A DNA stretch of 64,000 nucleotides from a virus. A program made the position numbers and the translations under genes. Shown piece after piece: positions 2,920 to 30,996 of this stretch (within the stretch, counting starts at the first letter, position 1; every line of letters starts with the position of its first letter). Location: the IMG/VR virus record IMGVR_UViG_3300003323_000724, positions 1-64,000 of that record, one strand, 5' to 3'. The notes under the pieces are model-generated. The model was not told the origin of the DNA. It worked only from the letters and a program-made list of their open reading frames with translations, and made no database searches.

Positions 2920-4080
2920 TCACCCCAACCGGAATTCTGTCGCTTTTCTCTCAGTCGCACTCGGAACTCCCTTCCGGACCACAATCAGCCGACCGGAAGC
3001 CACCATCTCGTCAATTACTCGCTTCCCAGTCATCCGAGCTACGTTTAAAGCCTCTGCCGCTTTCCTAGAAGACAAAAAGAACACTCCGCTAGGACTTTGG
3101 GCAGCCAACGCCCTGCATCCCTGTAGAAGCAATTCTGTGCGATTTGTGGCGGTATTCGTTTTCTGAGTTGCTTGCCTCAACAGATTCATCGGTCTGGAGT
3201 TCTGCATCGACACTTCGGTTTTCGACCAGTAGGCCCGAAAGTCTCGGAAGCTCACATCGAATTCCTTGGTCCGCATTTCCGAAACTGAAATCGCGTGCCA
3301 GTAGCAGAATGCGATGTACAAGTCGTGCGGATTTGCATCGACGGGCAGAACATCCCGCAACGCTCGGGAGAACCGGCCAATCATCCGATTCCGGGTTCCC
3401 ATCTGAACCACGCGAGTTTTCCGTGCCGCTTCCCGTATCCCGCTCGGTACTTCGTCAGGGGTCGGGAATGCCCCAAATGGGACACAAGTAGTTGACTGGT
3501 AATCAGGGGTTGTTTGGACGGGTTCTGCGGTGTGGGAATTGAGTAATCCTGTCTCGGCTAGTTTGAGGATCGGAAAGCTGGATTTCGACATCGGTGGAAT
3601 TGTGATCCACTCGTAATTGTGGGTGTTGCTTGATTTGTTCGTGATTCGAGATGGGGGCATCAGAACGAAGTGGCCGTCCGAGATCAGTTCTCCGTTACTC
3701 AACCTCTGCCACGGAACCGGATGAGGACAACGGAAGTGAACGTGGCGCCCACGGTGAGTTCTGACAGTTGGACAAATGATAGCGATTTCTTTGTTTGCTC
3801 TGGCCCACACCCGGTACTCATCCATCGTGTCGAAGTCGCGAACGATGTGATGCAGTCCGGCTCCGCTAATCGAACCACAGACGCACCCAATGGCAGTCGT
3901 TCCCCACCGCTTGAAGTGAAACGCAATGTCTCTGTCGTTGAGTTTTTTCTTTTGAAGTTCCAGCCATTCCATATTCGGTTTTTTGTTCTTCCGGACCGGA
4001 AAAACCGACATGCCGAGATTGCGAAGGATCAGAGCTTCTTGAACCAAGTCGTTGACGGGATCGTGCCAGAGCGATACCAT
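2920..4080 (-). CDS. Bifunctional primase/polymerase (Prim-Pol) domain protein with C-terminal HTH
   Basis: LGMSVFPV..NKKP..W, IGCVCGSISG...VRDFD, PTVRT.RGRHVHF, FVLMPPS; C-terminal LSSRKAAEALNV HTH. Confidence 0.8.
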   Translation of the reverse strand: MVSLWHDPVNDLVQEALILRNLGMSVFPVRKNKKPNMEWLELQKKKLNDRDIAFHFKRWGTTAIGCVCGSISGAGLHHIVRDFDTMDEYRVWARANKEIAIICPTVRTHRGRHVHFRCPHPVPWQRLSNGELISDGHFVLMPPSRITNKSSNTHNYEWITIPPMSKSSFPILKLAETGLLNSHTAEPVQTTPDYQSTTCVPFGAFPTPDEVPSGIREAARKTRVVQMGTRNRMIGRFSRALRDVLPVDANPHDLYIAFCYWHAISVSEMRTKEFDVSFRDFRAYWSKTEVSMQNSRPMNLLRQATQKTNTATNRTELLLQGCRALAAQSPSGVFFLSSRKAAEALNVARMTGKRVIDEMVASGRLIVVRKGVPSATERKATEFRLG

Positions 4081-4259
4081 TTCCCTGCACCTCGCCGGAA
4101 TCGAGGGACTATCGAAAGCGGCACCCAGCCACGGGTGCTTCTTTCACTTATGGACCTAATATCGCACTTCTCCGCTCCAAATCAAGCCTTAACGCTAGAC
4201 ACGAAATCTCGTGATCGGTACTATGCACTTGAAACGACTTCCCTTTTGGGAACTCCTGT

Positions 4260-4589
4260 ATGCAAGACCGGTATCCCACGACGCCGTTGCCCGACGATCC
4301 GGACGCTGAAGCCACCGAGTGGGTGGACGCGCCAGCCGAATCGCACGTCAAGGCATTCCGGTACGTGGACCGGTCCCAGTCGCGTCTCGGCGGTCCCAGC
4401 GAAGTCTGGGTGACGTTTAAGGCCAAGGACACGAAGACCAAGCACTACCCCGAAGTGACGTACAAGTACGAGTGGTATGACCACTCGGCCGGACTCGAAG
4501 CGTGGGGGGCGATTTCCGAAGCCGGAAGCCCCGGGCAAGTCATCGACGGGTGGAAGAAGTCCCACGTTCCTTACCACGGACCGATGTAA
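4260..4589 (+). CDS. KTSC-like domain protein
   Basis: SHVKAFRY...VWVTFK...TYKY...W.AI..A.S.G pattern resembles KTSC. Confidence 0.45.
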   Translation: MQDRYPTTPLPDDPDAEATEWVDAPAESHVKAFRYVDRSQSRLGGPSEVWVTFKAKDTKTKHYPEVTYKYEWYDHSAGLEAWGAISEAGSPGQVIDGWKKSHVPYHGPM

Positions 4590-4625
4590 CCAGCTCGCCC
4601 AATTCCTCTGAACGGAGTCTTAGAC

Positions 4626-4880: not shown

Positions 4881-5261
4881 ATGCCGGACCAAGTGTGGAT
4901 TCAATACGGATCGTTCGGAATCGTTTTCCTTATCCTAGTTGGTGGGGGAATCTGGTTCATTCGGTCTGGCTTTCCACAGATGCTTGTTGCGATGCACACG
5001 CTGGCCGATCGGGTAATGCTGACCGTTGAGAAGATGGACGACGGGTGCCGAGCGGAGCGGCGAGAACAACTCGCCGCGTTCCGCACCGAGAGCGAAAAGA
5101 ACCGGGAGATGATGGAGCGGATTTCCAAGTCGGACATGGAGGCGCGGCACAAGCAGGGCGAAGTTTACCAGCGGCAAATCATCGAAATGTTTGAGTATTT
5201 CACGAAACAATCCGGGGGCTTTCATCCGCCCGGAGTAAAACCGAAACCGGGGAACTCCTGA
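4881..5261 (+). CDS. Single-TM membrane protein with coiled coil (holin/spanin-like candidate)
   Basis: N-terminal TM segment GSFGIVFLILVGGGIWFI followed by a charged helical region. Confidence 0.55.
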   Translation: MPDQVWIQYGSFGIVFLILVGGGIWFIRSGFPQMLVAMHTLADRVMLTVEKMDDGCRAERREQLAAFRTESEKNREMMERISKSDMEARHKQGEVYQRQIIEMFEYFTKQSGGFHPPGVKPKPGNS

Positions 5262-5725
5262 TGGCAGAGGCTAACGGGACCAAGGAACGAAAGACCCGGA
5301 TCGGGGCCACTGTTGGTGAAATCGCCGACAGCGCGGAGCAGATCACCGATTCGGCCGTTTCGATTAGCAAGATGCCCTCCCAACAAGCGATCACCCTTCT
5401 CGCCGTGGGGAGCATTACCTTCCTCTGTATCTTCCTCGGGTTCCAATCTTGGCGGGAGTCGGAAGACCGCAAGGCTGCGATCAATTCGATGAAGGACCAG
5501 ATGAACGCTCAGATGCGGGAGAACAACTCTCAGCTTGAACTGAAATCGCTCCACTGCCAGCAGGAAGCGGAAAAGGCCCGTGCGGACTCCAAGGAACTGG
5601 TCAAGACGGTGATGACGGCGTTCATCGAAGAGGGAAGTAAGAACCGGACGTTCCAGGCGGAACAGAACGAGAAGCTCCGGACGGAACTGATTTCCACTCT
5701 CCGGATGAAATCTATCGGGCCGTAA
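5261..5725 (+). CDS. Single-TM membrane protein with coiled coil
   Basis: TM segment AITLLAVGSITFLCIFLGF; start overlaps the upstream stop (TGATG). Confidence 0.6.
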   Translation: MAEANGTKERKTRIGATVGEIADSAEQITDSAVSISKMPSQQAITLLAVGSITFLCIFLGFQSWRESEDRKAAINSMKDQMNAQMRENNSQLELKSLHCQQEAEKARADSKELVKTVMTAFIEEGSKNRTFQAEQNEKLRTELISTLRMKSIGP

Positions 5726-18346: not shown

Positions 18347-18769
18347 TTATCGCACGAATGGCCCCGTAACACACTCCCACCATTCGGGATTGGGCTTAGG
18401 CAAATCAGACCAAAGAAACTTGTGGGTCGAACGAAACGATGCAACCTCGACTTCTGGCAGCCGGACCCACTCTTTTCGTTTATCAATGCGGAATCGCTTC
18501 CATTGCCGCAACCAGTACGTTTCCAGTCGGCCGACACCATTGGTCGCGATGCTCCAGACGTACTTGAGAACACGGCCAGTGAGGAATTTGTGTCGGCGAA
18601 TGTGGTACAGGATGCGCGCATCCGGGTTGACCGACGCACCAAATTTCCACTCGCCTGTGGATTCACAATTGAGTAAGTAGACCGCGCCCGTGGCGACAGG
18701 CCAATCATACGTCGCGAATGCTTCTGGGCCTTCTGCTCTCACCCTTAATGGATATGGGACGTCCCTCAT
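18347..18769 (-). CDS. T5orf172/MUG113-type GIY-YIG-like nuclease
   Basis: AVYLL......WKFGAS.NP..RI, LE......KRFRI...KEWVRL. Confidence 0.65.
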   Translation of the reverse strand: MRDVPYPLRVRAEGPEAFATYDWPVATGAVYLLNCESTGEWKFGASVNPDARILYHIRRHKFLTGRVLKYVWSIATNGVGRLETYWLRQWKRFRIDKRKEWVRLPEVEVASFRSTHKFLWSDLPKPNPEWWECVTGPFVR

Positions 18770-18963
18770 TTCTTGCTCTCCTTCCGTGCGCGTCGCGAAT
18801 GCTCATGGCTAATTAACTGCAAGAGAACCGTAGTGCGGTTCTCTGGGCGCCCAGCCTCGGCCGCAAATTCCTGTACCAATTCGTCCAGCTTAGCGAGAGA
18901 ATCCGCCGGTATCCGGAATGTGCTTCGCGCGGTTTCGCCGGTCTTTTCTGCGGGCCTTGACAT
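18766..18963 (-). CDS. Ribbon-helix-helix DNA-binding protein
   Basis: Beta strand RSTFRIP then helices SLAKLDELV and NRTTVLLQLI; GGAG Shine-Dalgarno before ATG 18963. Confidence 0.65.
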   Translation of the reverse strand: MSRPAEKTGETARSTFRIPADSLAKLDELVQEFAAEAGRPENRTTVLLQLISHEHSRRARKESKK

Positions 18964-27864: not shown

Positions 27865-27892
27865 TTGACAGGTTCGATTCGTGTGGCATAGT
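27865..27892 (+). promoter_or_regulatory. Phage promoter motif copy (TTGACA-N16-CATAGT)
   Basis: Conserved motif. Confidence 0.8.
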
Positions 27893-28506: not shown

Positions 28507-29757
28507 ATGAAGAAGGCAAAAGAGAAAGGATCTACGGTTGTTAGAGCTGTGACTTTGCCCGTATCGGTTCCACTGGGAACAGATCCCAGCGGTAAGTCCT
28601 GGACTTGGGAATCGTTCAACGCAGCGATGACGAATGCGTTCCGGCTGTCGACGGATCTGGCCAACTGGTGCGTTCGTCGGTTGTTCATGATTGATGATTC
28701 GGGCAGCACCAAGACACCGGAAGCGATCAAGAAGTGGTACGGGTACAAGGACGCAAACGAGAATTTTCCCCGGATCGCGGGTTGGGCCGGGGCGATGGCG
28801 AGCATGAACATCGTGACTCGAAACGTCCAGCGGAAGTACATTCAGGATCGGTTTTCGGTAATTATCAAGCACGATTCGAGTTTGCTTACGTACCGGTTCC
28901 CGCAGCCGTTTCCGGTTCACAACGCGAGTTGGAAAACGGGCTACGCAGACGGGGATTTCCCAACAGTTAGGATGGCGATTCCGGGAGTGGGTCAGGTGGA
29001 ACTGAGACTGAAACGAAGGGCCGATTTTGGGCGACAGTTGGCAATGTTTCGCCAACTCCACGACGGGACAGCCAAGAAGGGTGAAGCGGCACTCTACCGT
29101 GACAAAAAGGGTGTTCTCTTGCTGAAGATGGTGGGGCACTTTCCGAAGAAGGAGCGGACGGAAGCGGCTAACGTGTGTTTCCTGCACACGGACCCGAACG
29201 CGATGCTAGTGGCTGAGATCAACGGCCGGTCAGTAACCGTGACTAACGGGGACCACCTAAAGCGAGCACACAAGGTTATCCGGGAGATGAACGACAGGCA
29301 CCGGGTGTTCTTGCAACGGATCGGGGAGGACAAGAAACGGGAAGTTCGGATGGATCGGGACCAGCGACAGAACGTGAACAAGAAGGTCGAAGATCGGTGT
29401 AACAAGCAGAGGAACCGAATCGACACGGCCGTGAAACAGATTGCGGCTCAGGTGGCTCGGTTCTTGGAACGACAGAAGGTTGGTCTTGTTGCCTACGATG
29501 ATTCGATCAAGACTTTCCTTCCTGACGGGTTCACTTGGCACGCTTTGAAAACACGGATCACCCAATTGTTTGTTGGTGAGATGGGTGGGGAGTGGATTGA
29601 CGGTAAATTCACACACTTGAAGGACGAAACGGAGAAACAGGAATGGCTGATAAGAGCACGGGCGGTGTACACAACGATTCCGAAAGTCGTGGCACACAAG
29701 TCCCGACCCCGGAAGAAGTCGCATCCGGCGGTGTCGATACCGCCAAAGACCATGTGA
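28507..29757 (+). CDS. Cas12f/TnpB-like type V effector, predicted nuclease-dead
   Basis: Colinear with Cas12f1 segments: WED strand, REC helix, SLLTYR.PQP ~ SIPSYK..IP, RIDTAVKQIAAQVA ~ FRDTTNHRYSRYIV, FTWHALKTRI ~ WTYYDLQQKI. RuvC-I GIDLG reads FLHTD, RuvC-II QMED reads AYDD, and there is no CxxC ribbon or RuvC-III. Adjacent to a CRISPR array. Confidence 0.75.
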   Translation: MKKAKEKGSTVVRAVTLPVSVPLGTDPSGKSWTWESFNAAMTNAFRLSTDLANWCVRRLFMIDDSGSTKTPEAIKKWYGYKDANENFPRIAGWAGAMASMNIVTRNVQRKYIQDRFSVIIKHDSSLLTYRFPQPFPVHNASWKTGYADGDFPTVRMAIPGVGQVELRLKRRADFGRQLAMFRQLHDGTAKKGEAALYRDKKGVLLLKMVGHFPKKERTEAANVCFLHTDPNAMLVAEINGRSVTVTNGDHLKRAHKVIREMNDRHRVFLQRIGEDKKREVRMDRDQRQNVNKKVEDRCNKQRNRIDTAVKQIAAQVARFLERQKVGLVAYDDSIKTFLPDGFTWHALKTRITQLFVGEMGGEWIDGKFTHLKDETEKQEWLIRARAVYTTIPKVVAHKSRPRKKSHPAVSIPPKTM

Positions 29758-29880
29758 AAATGGCTTCGGCCTTGATGAACGGTCTGTTTAATGGCGGGTT
29801 GAAATCTCGAACGTCTCGCGATGCCGTTCGGATCGGGCACTACGGTTTGCGGGCGATCCAAACGGACACTACCAGCGAGT
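29727..29880 (+). ncRNA. Putative tracrRNA-like structured RNA
   Basis: Several hairpins plus two segments complementary to the CRISPR repeat (29837-29843; 29867-29878); boundaries uncertain. Confidence 0.4.
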
Positions 29881-30111
29881 GATTAGGTGATAAACTGATG
29901 GTTTGTTTGAAAATCGATGTAAGTTGCGGGTTGTGTTTAGTTTGTGCTGATCTTTGACAAATCAACCGCTCGCAACAACATAACTTAGTGATTACATTGT
30001 CTTTGCGCTCCTGCCGAGCGCGGACGCAACGGGCACCTGTCTCACGCAGTCAGGTCCGCTCGCGTAACGTGGGATAAAACTGGTCCGGGAGATGACTTAA
30101 GTGTCCCCGCC
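29881..30111 (+). promoter_or_regulatory. CRISPR leader
   Basis: Non-coding and partly AT-rich; repeated CCGCTCGC and a CGAGCG...CGCTCG inverted repeat immediately before repeat 1. Confidence 0.55.
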
Positions 30112-30367
30112 CCGGAACTACTACACCGATCGTTGGAGTGGTGCAGGGTGGCCCGGGTCGAGTACGACGGAAGTACTGGGGCCCGGAACTACTACACCGA
30201 TCGTTGGAGTGGTGCAGGGGCCTGACGGCGTTCGGCCGCGACTTCGCCGGCCTCCCGGAACTACTACACCGATCGTTGGAGTGGTGCAGGTACATGCGCG
30301 CCTCCGGCGCGTTCACGTGCTTGTAGAGATTCCGGAACTACTACACCGATCGTTGGAGTGGTGCAGG
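30112..30367 (+). CRISPR. CRISPR mini-array: 4 x 36-bp repeat CCGGAACTACTACACCGATCGTTGGAGTGGTGCAGG, 3 spacers (35, 36, 41 nt)
   Basis: Identical repeats at 30112, 30183, 30255 and 30332 with unique spacers. Orientation is inferred from the leader position and from the variant preceding base at the last repeat (C,C,C,T). Confidence 0.95.
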
Positions 30368-30387
30368 GAGGTAGTTAAGGGGAAAAA

Positions 30388-30996
30388 ATGACATTGACCG
30401 AAAAAGAAGTCCGAGGAGTGTTTCGAGCGTTGTGGGTGAAGGAATCCGAAGAGTGGTCTGTGGACGAACTGACTCGACGTGTTAACCGAGTGGGTGAAGT
30501 TCATAGTTGGGTAAAACCAAAACAGAATTACTTGTTCCGGTCGGATGAGCTGGAAACTCTGTTGAAGTTGGTCAATTGCGACGGACGGGGAGAAATTGAA
30601 ATAACCCCGACACCAAGTCGGGATAAGCCAGAGTCTCGATTGAAGTGGAAGGAGCGGTTGAACGCGATCCGCCGGGGAACGGGTGCCAAGAACAAACCCC
30701 GTAAGGGGTCTGCTAAGGATTTGGCCCACCGGCTGCTTTTGAAGGCCACGGAGAAATCTCCGCTGACCATTGAAAAACTAGCGAAGATCATCCACGCCAA
30801 TTTCCAGAACCGAGAATACTATGCGGTTCTGAAGTCGATGAAGCGGGTTATGATCGAACTGAAGGTGGAGTATGGGGTTTACGTTTCCTCTCGACGGCTA
30901 GATAAGTCCGAAAGAAACGGGAAACGTAATTTGTTTGGATACTGGATCGAAGGGGACGGGAAAATCAAACCGAGTGAGGAGAAGACAGGTGAGTAA
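30388..30996 (+). CDS. Basic hypothetical protein, possible winged-helix C-terminus
   Basis: Starts 20 nt after the last repeat; LTIEKLAKII helix pattern. Confidence 0.6.
   Translation: MTLTEKEVRGVFRALWVKESEEWSVDELTRRVNRVGEVHSWVKPKQNYLFRSDELETLLKLVNCDGRGEIEITPTPSRDKPESRLKWKERLNAIRRGTGAKNKPRKGSAKDLAHRLLLKATEKSPLTIEKLAKIIHANFQNREYYAVLKSMKRVMIELKVEYGVYVSSRRLDKSERNGKRNLFGYWIEGDGKIKPSEEKTGE

Follow-up and report, generated by a model that had tools for sequence, protein, structure and literature searches.

Positions 29996-30111 of the virus record IMGVR_UViG_3300003323_000724 encode a conserved, structured RNA that very probably is the guide-RNA scaffold of the phage Cas12f-like protein encoded beside it; a further stem, P1, probably extends the scaffold 5' from position 29875. 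The stretch of DNA analysed here (the window) comprises positions 1-64,000, the first 64 kb, of this 103,939-bp record. The element lies between the Cas12f-like gene and a miniature CRISPR array. Since it has the pseudoknot, the stem and the parts resembling repeat:anti-repeat (R:AR) duplexes of described guide RNAs, it is read as the guide scaffold of that protein. The features are as follows.

28507-29757, + strand: Cas12f-like gene (P0001), 416 amino acids (aa), recognised by a Foldseek match of its AlphaFold2 model
29875-29973, + strand: outer stem P1, 5' arm GCGAGUG at 29875-29881 and 3' arm CGCUCGC at 29967-29973; conservation
29996-30111, + strand: scaffold core; covariance model with compensatory changes
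30005-30021, + strand: P2 hairpin, GCGCU, 7-nt loop CCUGCCG, AGCGC; 98.9% paired, compensatory changes in 4 of 5 pairs
30010-30014, + strand: anti-repeat 1, CCUGC, within the loop of P2; partner of the final 5 nt (GCAGG) in each repeat, e.g. 30143-30147
30024-30065, + strand: P3, a long stem containing an internal loop; 94% (helix 3) and 88% (helix 4) paired, compensatory changes including A-U to C-G
30084-30089, + strand: anti-repeat 2, UCCGGG; helix 5
30094-30105, + strand: linker hairpin; helix 6, 88.7% paired, compensatory changes in 4 of 4 pairs
30112-30367, + strand: CRISPR mini-array of four identical 36-nt repeats and three spacers

Conservation and covariation of the scaffold

Scans of viral and metagenome collections yielded 23 related loci (labelled L001, L002 and so on), with proteins 28-63% identical to that of the window; the contigs of the closest homologues (60-74%) lie outside this set. 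A protein scan of a collection of genome contigs found no relative of the Cas12f-like protein. A mini-array of 36-37-nt repeats adjoins the gene homologue in 12 of 12 viral loci and in all metagenome loci that are long enough, and the related arrays comprise 2-17 repeats downstream of the scaffold. The conserved element was first seen by eye. With a covariance model based on six loci, it is detected on the + strand immediately upstream of repeat 1 in 17 of the 18 distinct array-bearing loci; the model also matches L017, whose contig ends within repeat 1. In L001, where tandem units lie on one viral contig, the element occurs twice, one copy ahead of each of two arrays (4086-4237, 5158-5300), and in L008 the order is scaffold, array, gene (1794-2543; 3001-4134). 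The repeats nearest the first scaffold of L001 are degenerate. None of the Rfam covariance models matched 29600-30450 at E-values up to 1.

In an alignment of 18 elements, standard base pairs occupy 91.0% of the pair cells, as opposed to 67.1% in shuffles; none of 500 shuffles was as high, a count that is not a probability because the loci are related. Partners slid out of register are paired in 35-43%. Compensatory changes occur in 28 of the 34 pairs. P2 and P3 are kept, with such changes, across proteins that are only 28-35% identical, and RNAalifold shows many of them in the variable distal hairpin of P3 (30035-30055). P3 is followed by a single-stranded stretch, anti-repeat 2 and the linker hairpin, the loop of which is of the tetraloop type UUNN in relatives. 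In every locus, anti-repeat 2 keeps a constant distance of 21-24 nt from repeat 1. G-U pairs are abundant on the + strand and would be A-C mismatches on the other, which identifies the + strand as the RNA strand.

P1 rests on conservation rather than covariation. An 8-bp GCGAGCGG/CCGCUCGC stem is conserved in 8 loci, and the only changes are of the G-U type, compatible with pairing. In the window, the 5' arm overlaps the stop codon of a small open reading frame (ORF, described below), and the loop carries an AT-rich insertion of about 85 nt (29885-29965) with a TTGACA hexamer at 29955. In L005 and L007, the equivalent stem is located within the 3' end of the Cas12f-like ORF, and in L012 its 3' arm starts just past the stop codon. 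An insertion of similar size is seen in the P1 loop of L004 (~4535-4620); in the remaining loci the loop is 25 nt long and bears a conserved GUGAACGAAA motif instead.

A first-pass annotation, made from the letters of the window, had placed a candidate trans-activating CRISPR RNA (tracrRNA) with a split anti-repeat, plus a leader, at 29727-30111. Covariation across homologous loci, which it had named as a check, supports a scaffold at 29996-30111 with anti-repeats at 30084-30089 and 30010-30014. It had also pointed to an inverted repeat, CGAGCG..GAC / GTC..CGCTCG (~30015-30062), ahead of repeat 1. This sequence is present and conserved, but it is not a helix: its arms are paired in 68.7% of cells in the 18 elements and in 67.4% in shuffles, and its bases make up the P2 3' arm and part of P3, with most of them in P3.

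Pairing of the scaffold with the repeats

The four direct repeats of the window start at 30112, 30183, 30255 and 30332 and are separated by spacers of 35, 36 and 41 nt. The partners of anti-repeat 2 are the 5 nt that begin the repeat (CCGGA) and the base just before them (30111-30116). This helix is 98.1% paired, with compensatory changes in 6 of 6 pairs, and no fewer than 8 different pair sets occur across loci, among them UCCGG:CCGGA in the window, UCGCC:GGCGA in L013, UCAGG:CCUGA in L016 and L011, GCUGG:CCAGC in L004, ACGGG:CCCGU in L005 and GAGAG:CUCUC in L010. Anti-repeat 2 forms on average 5.89 of 6 bp with the repeat of its own locus and 3.97 with those of other loci; none of 10000 permutations reached the own-locus value. 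Within the window it can form 5 of 5 bp with each of the four repeats.

The loop of P2 pairs with the 3' end of the repeat to form a pseudoknot, which is 85% paired with compensatory changes in 3 of 5 pairs. The pair sets are CUGC:GCAG in most loci, CUUC:GAAG in L013, CCGC:GCGG in L004, L005, L007 and L010, and UUGC:GCAA in L001. Because the covariance model does not include the pseudoknot, the alignment is free of any fitting to it. Pairing within a locus exceeds that between loci except in 17 of 10000 permutations. For 12 of the 15 loci scored, both pairings are open to all repeats of the array with no more than one mismatch in each; the low pseudoknot scores of L002 and L003 have register or alignment reasons, and L001 was scored for repeat 1 only. 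The repeat ends of L013 (GGCGA...GAAGG) cannot pair with each other, and both scaffold sites match them (UCGCC, CUUC). Thus, selection appears to act on the pairing between scaffold and repeat. Between the two ends, a hairpin within the middle of the repeat (helix 7) is 84% paired, with compensatory changes in 6 of 6 pairs across loci.

These pairings suggest the following arrangement. The scaffold, read on the + strand and most likely within one transcript with the protein gene, the small ORF and the array, would fold into P1, P2 and P3, and its two short anti-repeats would clamp both ends of a repeat. The pseudoknot between the P2 loop and the repeat 3' end would then form directly beside the spacer-derived guide, while the middle of the repeat folds on itself between the clamped ends. 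The resulting core of guide, pseudoknot and stem would be of the type bound by TnpB and Cas12f proteins, and it is presumably bound by the adjacent protein. As the scaffold is joined in cis to repeat 1 by a 21-nt hairpin linker, scaffold, repeat 1 and spacer 1 together would constitute a natural single-guide RNA. Identical pairings are available to repeats 2-4, on which the scaffold may act in trans.

The Cas12f-like protein

The adjacent protein has no sequence match in Pfam, NCBIfam, PHROG or PDB. None of its 106 homologues has a functional name or a Pfam domain, and a few bear the label 'hypothetical protein'. The AlphaFold2 model, for which 32 homologues were used, has a predicted local distance difference test (pLDDT) score of 83.7. 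When compared with PDB by Foldseek, the best match is AsCas12f (E 2.8e-16), with the natural nuclease-dead dCas12f 9n9c at E 3e-14, then TnpB and Cas12k. The ESM Atlas agrees with a Cas12f fold, and the cluster to which the protein itself belongs is 78% viral. By its structural model, the 416-aa protein has a Cas12f fold.

Residues D229 and D332 are nearly invariant in the homologue alignment and, judged by secondary structure alone, fit the RuvC-I and RuvC-II positions. After residue 332 the alignment contains no conserved cysteine cluster and no conserved third acidic residue, and the RuvC site, as read from the sequence alignment, therefore looks incomplete. A Cas12f or TnpB protein would be expected to show the full RuvC triad (D, E, D) together with a zinc-finger (TNB) insertion. 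Neither a zinc finger nor a recognisable RuvC-III motif was found in the protein. A search of PDB sequences with profile A1 gave no Cas12f match, and the catalytic residues are not alignable by sequence. The protein may bind DNA rather than cut it.

The C-terminus is a conserved SHPAVS tail. In the window, this tail (..EW..RA.., then SHPAVS) is in frame with the Cas12f-like protein (29620-29757). In four loci it is a separate short ORF in another frame, overlapping the end of a core of ~355-365 aa (L003 4071-4226, L004 4074-4361, L006 1715-1882, L020 1190-1354), and many database homologues of 353-366 aa are without it. Differences between loci in the SHPAVS codons are synonymous in the tail frame and non-synonymous in the overlapping frame. 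The tail looks like an accessory module that is fused in some loci and split in others, or possibly a product of frameshifting. At the other end, some homologues, including P0034, P0095 and P0106, carry an N-terminal CxxC...CxxC extension that is not in the window protein.

A small gene between the Cas12f-like gene and the scaffold

29760-29882, + strand: small ORF of 40 aa, coding by its pattern of codon changes; begins 2 nt past the Cas12f-like gene stop

Between this ORF and its counterpart in L015, 15 codon changes are synonymous and 4 non-synonymous, and third positions account for 16 of 25 differences; the two remaining frames give 1 synonymous and 18 non-synonymous changes. Judged by these substitutions, 29760-29882 is a protein-coding gene under purifying selection, and the phage map is corrected to show a small gene, not an RNA scaffold, at this position. 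Related small ORFs occupy the equivalent place in nine loci besides L015 (L013, L016, L017, L019, L020, L002, L003, L004 and L006); example coordinates, with those of the L015 counterpart, are L013 1669-1803, L015 3715-3834, L016 2336-2470, L006 1753-2121 and L003 4019-4453. The encoded protein ranges from 40 aa in the window to ~160 aa in other loci, and in several of them the start codon overlaps the upstream stop (ATGA/TGATG). The small ORF is absent from the loci with a short gap (L001, L005, L007, L011 and L012). It matches no Pfam or PHROG family.

Transcription and genomic context

27865-27892, + strand: promoter-like motif TTGAC..N16..CATAGT, exact match; the nearest copy upstream of the Cas12f-like gene

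This motif recurs in the window as TTGAC.., a 16-nt spacer often ending in GTGTGG, and CATAGT or CATATT. There are 11-12 exact copies (listed at 2891, 17237, 19573, 21718, 27865, 47622, 55720, 58255, 60317, 60360 and 63494), and 21 matches when one mismatch is allowed, against 10.8 expected. The copy at 27865 is the likely start of a transcript that runs from the Cas12f-like gene through the small ORF and the scaffold to the array. Within 29500-30500, neither a sigma-70-like promoter nor an intrinsic terminator was recognised. With no such signals near the element and the nearest motif copy at 27865, the RNA is probably cut from the operon transcript, as omega-RNAs are from tnpB mRNA.

The Cas12f-like gene is flanked by phage replication genes, encoding a helix-turn-helix protein, a DnaB-like helicase, a sliding clamp and a DNA polymerase. 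In the gene content of the window, transposon ends or a transposase were not noticed, although no dedicated search was made. The spacers match neither the 103,939-bp genome of the phage itself nor a phage collection, and no exact 22-mer of the three spacers occurs in a collection of viral contigs. Spacer 2 gave 24 exact 22-mer matches in the genome contig collection, but these were rejected as chance matches of GC-rich sequence, with 3-7 of the 14 remaining bases in agreement. Elsewhere in the window, a k-mer screen flagged a short direct repeat at 18710-18803 with 55-95-nt spacing.

Alternative explanations

Several points weigh against the guide-scaffold reading. One array-bearing locus, L009, has no match to the covariance model anywhere in its 5 kb; its array (2237-2405) has 37-nt repeats, spacers of only ~29 nt, and begins 17 nt past the gene. 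The anti-repeats are very short, at 5-6 and 4-5 bp. From the window sequence alone, folding and duplex energies of the true core are not separable from those of shuffles. The counts for the nested helices come from an alignment fitted to the model, which favours nested helices, and to this is added the relatedness of the loci mentioned above. P1 and the 5' end of the RNA are uncertain. A tracrRNA transcript of its own is unsupported, since neither a promoter nor a terminator could be recognised near the element. L001 has, right after each scaffold, a variant repeat (starting CUGGA) with a perfect match to anti-repeat 2, whereas the other repeats have an A-C mismatch; this fits use in cis better than use in trans.

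The last observation would also suit a different explanation, which we regard as improbable but as the best of the alternatives. Here the repeats would be self-sufficient hairpin CRISPR RNAs (crRNAs), in the style of type V systems that are free of tracrRNA, and the upstream RNA would be a cis element of the pre-crRNA that pairs only with repeat 1 (e.g., for folding, processing or stability) and is not bound by the protein. The repeats of most loci do fold as full-length hairpins (z -2.4 to -6), and the literature links palindromic repeats with tracrRNA-independent Cas12 variants (PMC10097598, PMC12721324). Moreover, in every case the element lies next to repeat 1 at a fixed distance, with the base preceding that repeat taking part in the helix. 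However, the repeats of the window and of L013 are weak hairpins on their own. The partner of the pseudoknot is the last 4-5 nt of the repeat beside the guide, the exact place of pairing in TnpB and Cas12f scaffolds (PMC10097598). The protein, at ~360-416 aa, is of a size class reported to need large RNA scaffolds, and the compensatory changes in P2 and P3 across highly diverged proteins also argue for a scaffold.

That the conserved element is instead a CRISPR leader acting at the DNA level, with a promoter or signals for integration-host factors or adaptation and no function in RNA structure, seems very unlikely. It does occupy the leader position directly upstream of repeat 1, and the first-pass annotation had labelled the stretch a leader. 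Nevertheless, base pairs rather than sequence are conserved, as seen from the compensatory changes and the many G-U pairs, and the element co-varies with both ends of the repeat; 29996-30111 is the structured RNA itself. Nor was a promoter-like site found in 29500-30500, and cas1 and cas2 were not noticed near the array (from the ORF list and partial domain scans, which covered the window and not the related loci).

Least credible of all is a tracrRNA at ~29727-29900 followed by a leader at 29900-30111, with anti-repeats at 29837-29843 and 29867-29878. The first-pass annotation was right that an RNA scaffold with a split anti-repeat lies between effector and array, and within its interval, but its specific anti-repeats and hairpins do not hold. 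The motifs exist where it placed them (GGCGGT at 29727-29732 with ACCGCC at 29739-29744, GAACG/CGTTC, GATCG/CGATC, GCACTAC at 29837-29843 and CACTACCAGCGA at 29867-29878), and the two anti-repeat sites can pair with the repeat. By eye, a C to T change at the L015 homologue of 29840 even matches a G to A difference in the repeat. This interval is coding, though, and that single matching substitution is a synonymous change in a His codon. Both proposed anti-repeats and the GAACG/CGTTC and GATCG/CGATC hairpins lie inside the small ORF. The hairpin at 29727-29744 falls in the codons for SHPAVS, where substitutions between loci, as seen by eye, are synonymous in the gene frame.

The proposed pairings are at chance level. 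On the + strand of the window, 12-mers that pair with the repeat as well as the CACTACCAGCGA site (-13.7 kcal/mol) occur 4.8 times per 354 nt, and 7-mers as good as the GCACTAC site (-8.9 kcal/mol) 6.8 times, so that equally good pairings are expected 5-7 times in such a length. The annotation itself had cautioned that short pairings may arise by chance. The best duplex between the repeat and 29727-29995 is matched by 27% of dinucleotide shuffles and by 50% of other 269-nt windows. Sites equivalent to the proposed anti-repeats are lacking in L013, L016, L019 and L020, where this zone differs in sequence, and across 11 loci there is no excess of own-locus complementarity. A third anti-repeat between the gene end and P2 was rejected on the same comparison (8.55 nt of complementarity to the own repeat and 8.89 nt to foreign repeats).

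Comparison with known guide RNAs

The omega-RNA of TnpB and all Cas12 guide RNAs are reported to share a conserved pseudoknot of 3-5 bp immediately 5' of the guide, with a stem after it; in Cas12f, pseudoknot and stem correspond to repeat:anti-repeat duplexes 1 and 2 (R:AR-1 and R:AR-2). The omega-RNA is described as a natural single guide, in which a tetraloop connects the tracr-like half with the crRNA-like one (PMC10097598).

The scaffold most resembles the dual guide of Cas12f (type V-F) in being encoded between a miniature gene of the Cas12f fold and an array with repeats of similar length (36-37 nt), and in having a split anti-repeat, with an R:AR-1-like part in a pseudoknot with the repeat 3' end and an R:AR-2-like part in a duplex with the 5' end (PMC10097598). 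In contrast to characterised V-F guides, the two duplexes here are much shorter, at 5-6 and 4-5 bp, and they hold a self-folding repeat at its two ends. The scaffold is also fused to the array at a fixed 21-24 nt, with no recognisable promoter or terminator of its own. Non-palindromic repeats have been proposed for tracrRNA-dependent Cas12 systems (PMC10097598), whereas the repeats of most loci here fold as full-length hairpins. The protein likewise differs from Cas12f and TnpB proteins: it resembles no known family in sequence and lacks a zinc finger and a recognisable RuvC-III motif.

With the omega-RNA of TnpB (ISDra2 type) the element shares the guide-pseudoknot-stem core and the linkage in cis of tracr-like and crRNA-like parts by a short hairpin loop. 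The overlap of omega-RNAs with the ORF end, to which the locus had earlier been likened, is found in the more distant L005 and L007, where the 3' end of the protein ORF contains the 5' stem; the window has an overlap with the small ORF's stop codon only, and this 40-aa gene separates the protein gene from the RNA. Unlike in TnpB systems, the repeat module is multiplied with different spacers into an array, and the element resides in a phage replication module where, going by gene content, transposon features were not noticed.

Natural dCas12f proteins work with single guide RNAs in a sigma-E-linked setting, and a cluster of them near CRISPR arrays has been mentioned, for which covariance pointed to putative guide RNAs located upstream of the arrays (PMC13472631). 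The position of the scaffold is the same as in this cluster, and the proteins are alike in their Cas12f fold and in a C-terminal part without recognisable RuvC-III, with 9n9c among the best structural matches. By contrast, the family described here is mostly viral, has no rpoE (sigma-E) or efflux context, shows no detectable sequence similarity to the solved dCas12f, and retains a multi-spacer array in the window.

Harrington and colleagues, in 2020, reportedly showed that scoutRNA recognises the repeat through a few complementary bases. The scoutRNA of Cas12c and Cas12d is described as a short non-coding RNA with this mode of recognition (as cited in PMC12721324). Compared by description, the element of the window is similar in being a short RNA that would recognise the repeat via few bases, but the effector family and the RNA fold differ, and the window RNA has two anti-repeat sites and is joined to the array.

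Implications for phage Cas12f-like systems

Models of type V evolution derive CRISPR systems from omega-RNAs either by splitting, which gives a tracrRNA and non-palindromic repeats, or by condensation and duplication, which gives palindromic repeats (PMC10097598, PMC10691335). One proposed evolutionary stage has a half repeat near the tracrRNA (PMC10691335). More speculatively, the locus might be a living intermediate between an omega-RNA and a tracrRNA with CRISPR array, in which, on a single transcript, a full scaffold is fused to repeat 1 and the later repeats are copies of the last scaffold module only, served in trans through a clamp at both repeat ends. The widespread, unannotated phage Cas12f-like family, probably impaired as a nuclease, might then silence genes of the host or of rival elements rather than cut them. 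We offer this as a tentative possibility.

The scaffold defines a guide RNA for more than 100 phage-encoded miniature proteins of the Cas12f fold that have so far been without functional annotation, and a known guide is a precondition for reconstituting and testing this family. Because the window combines an array-fused scaffold, two miniature anti-repeats and a self-folding repeat, which are treated as alternatives in models of type V evolution, it would serve as a test case for the origin of CRISPR arrays from omega-RNAs.

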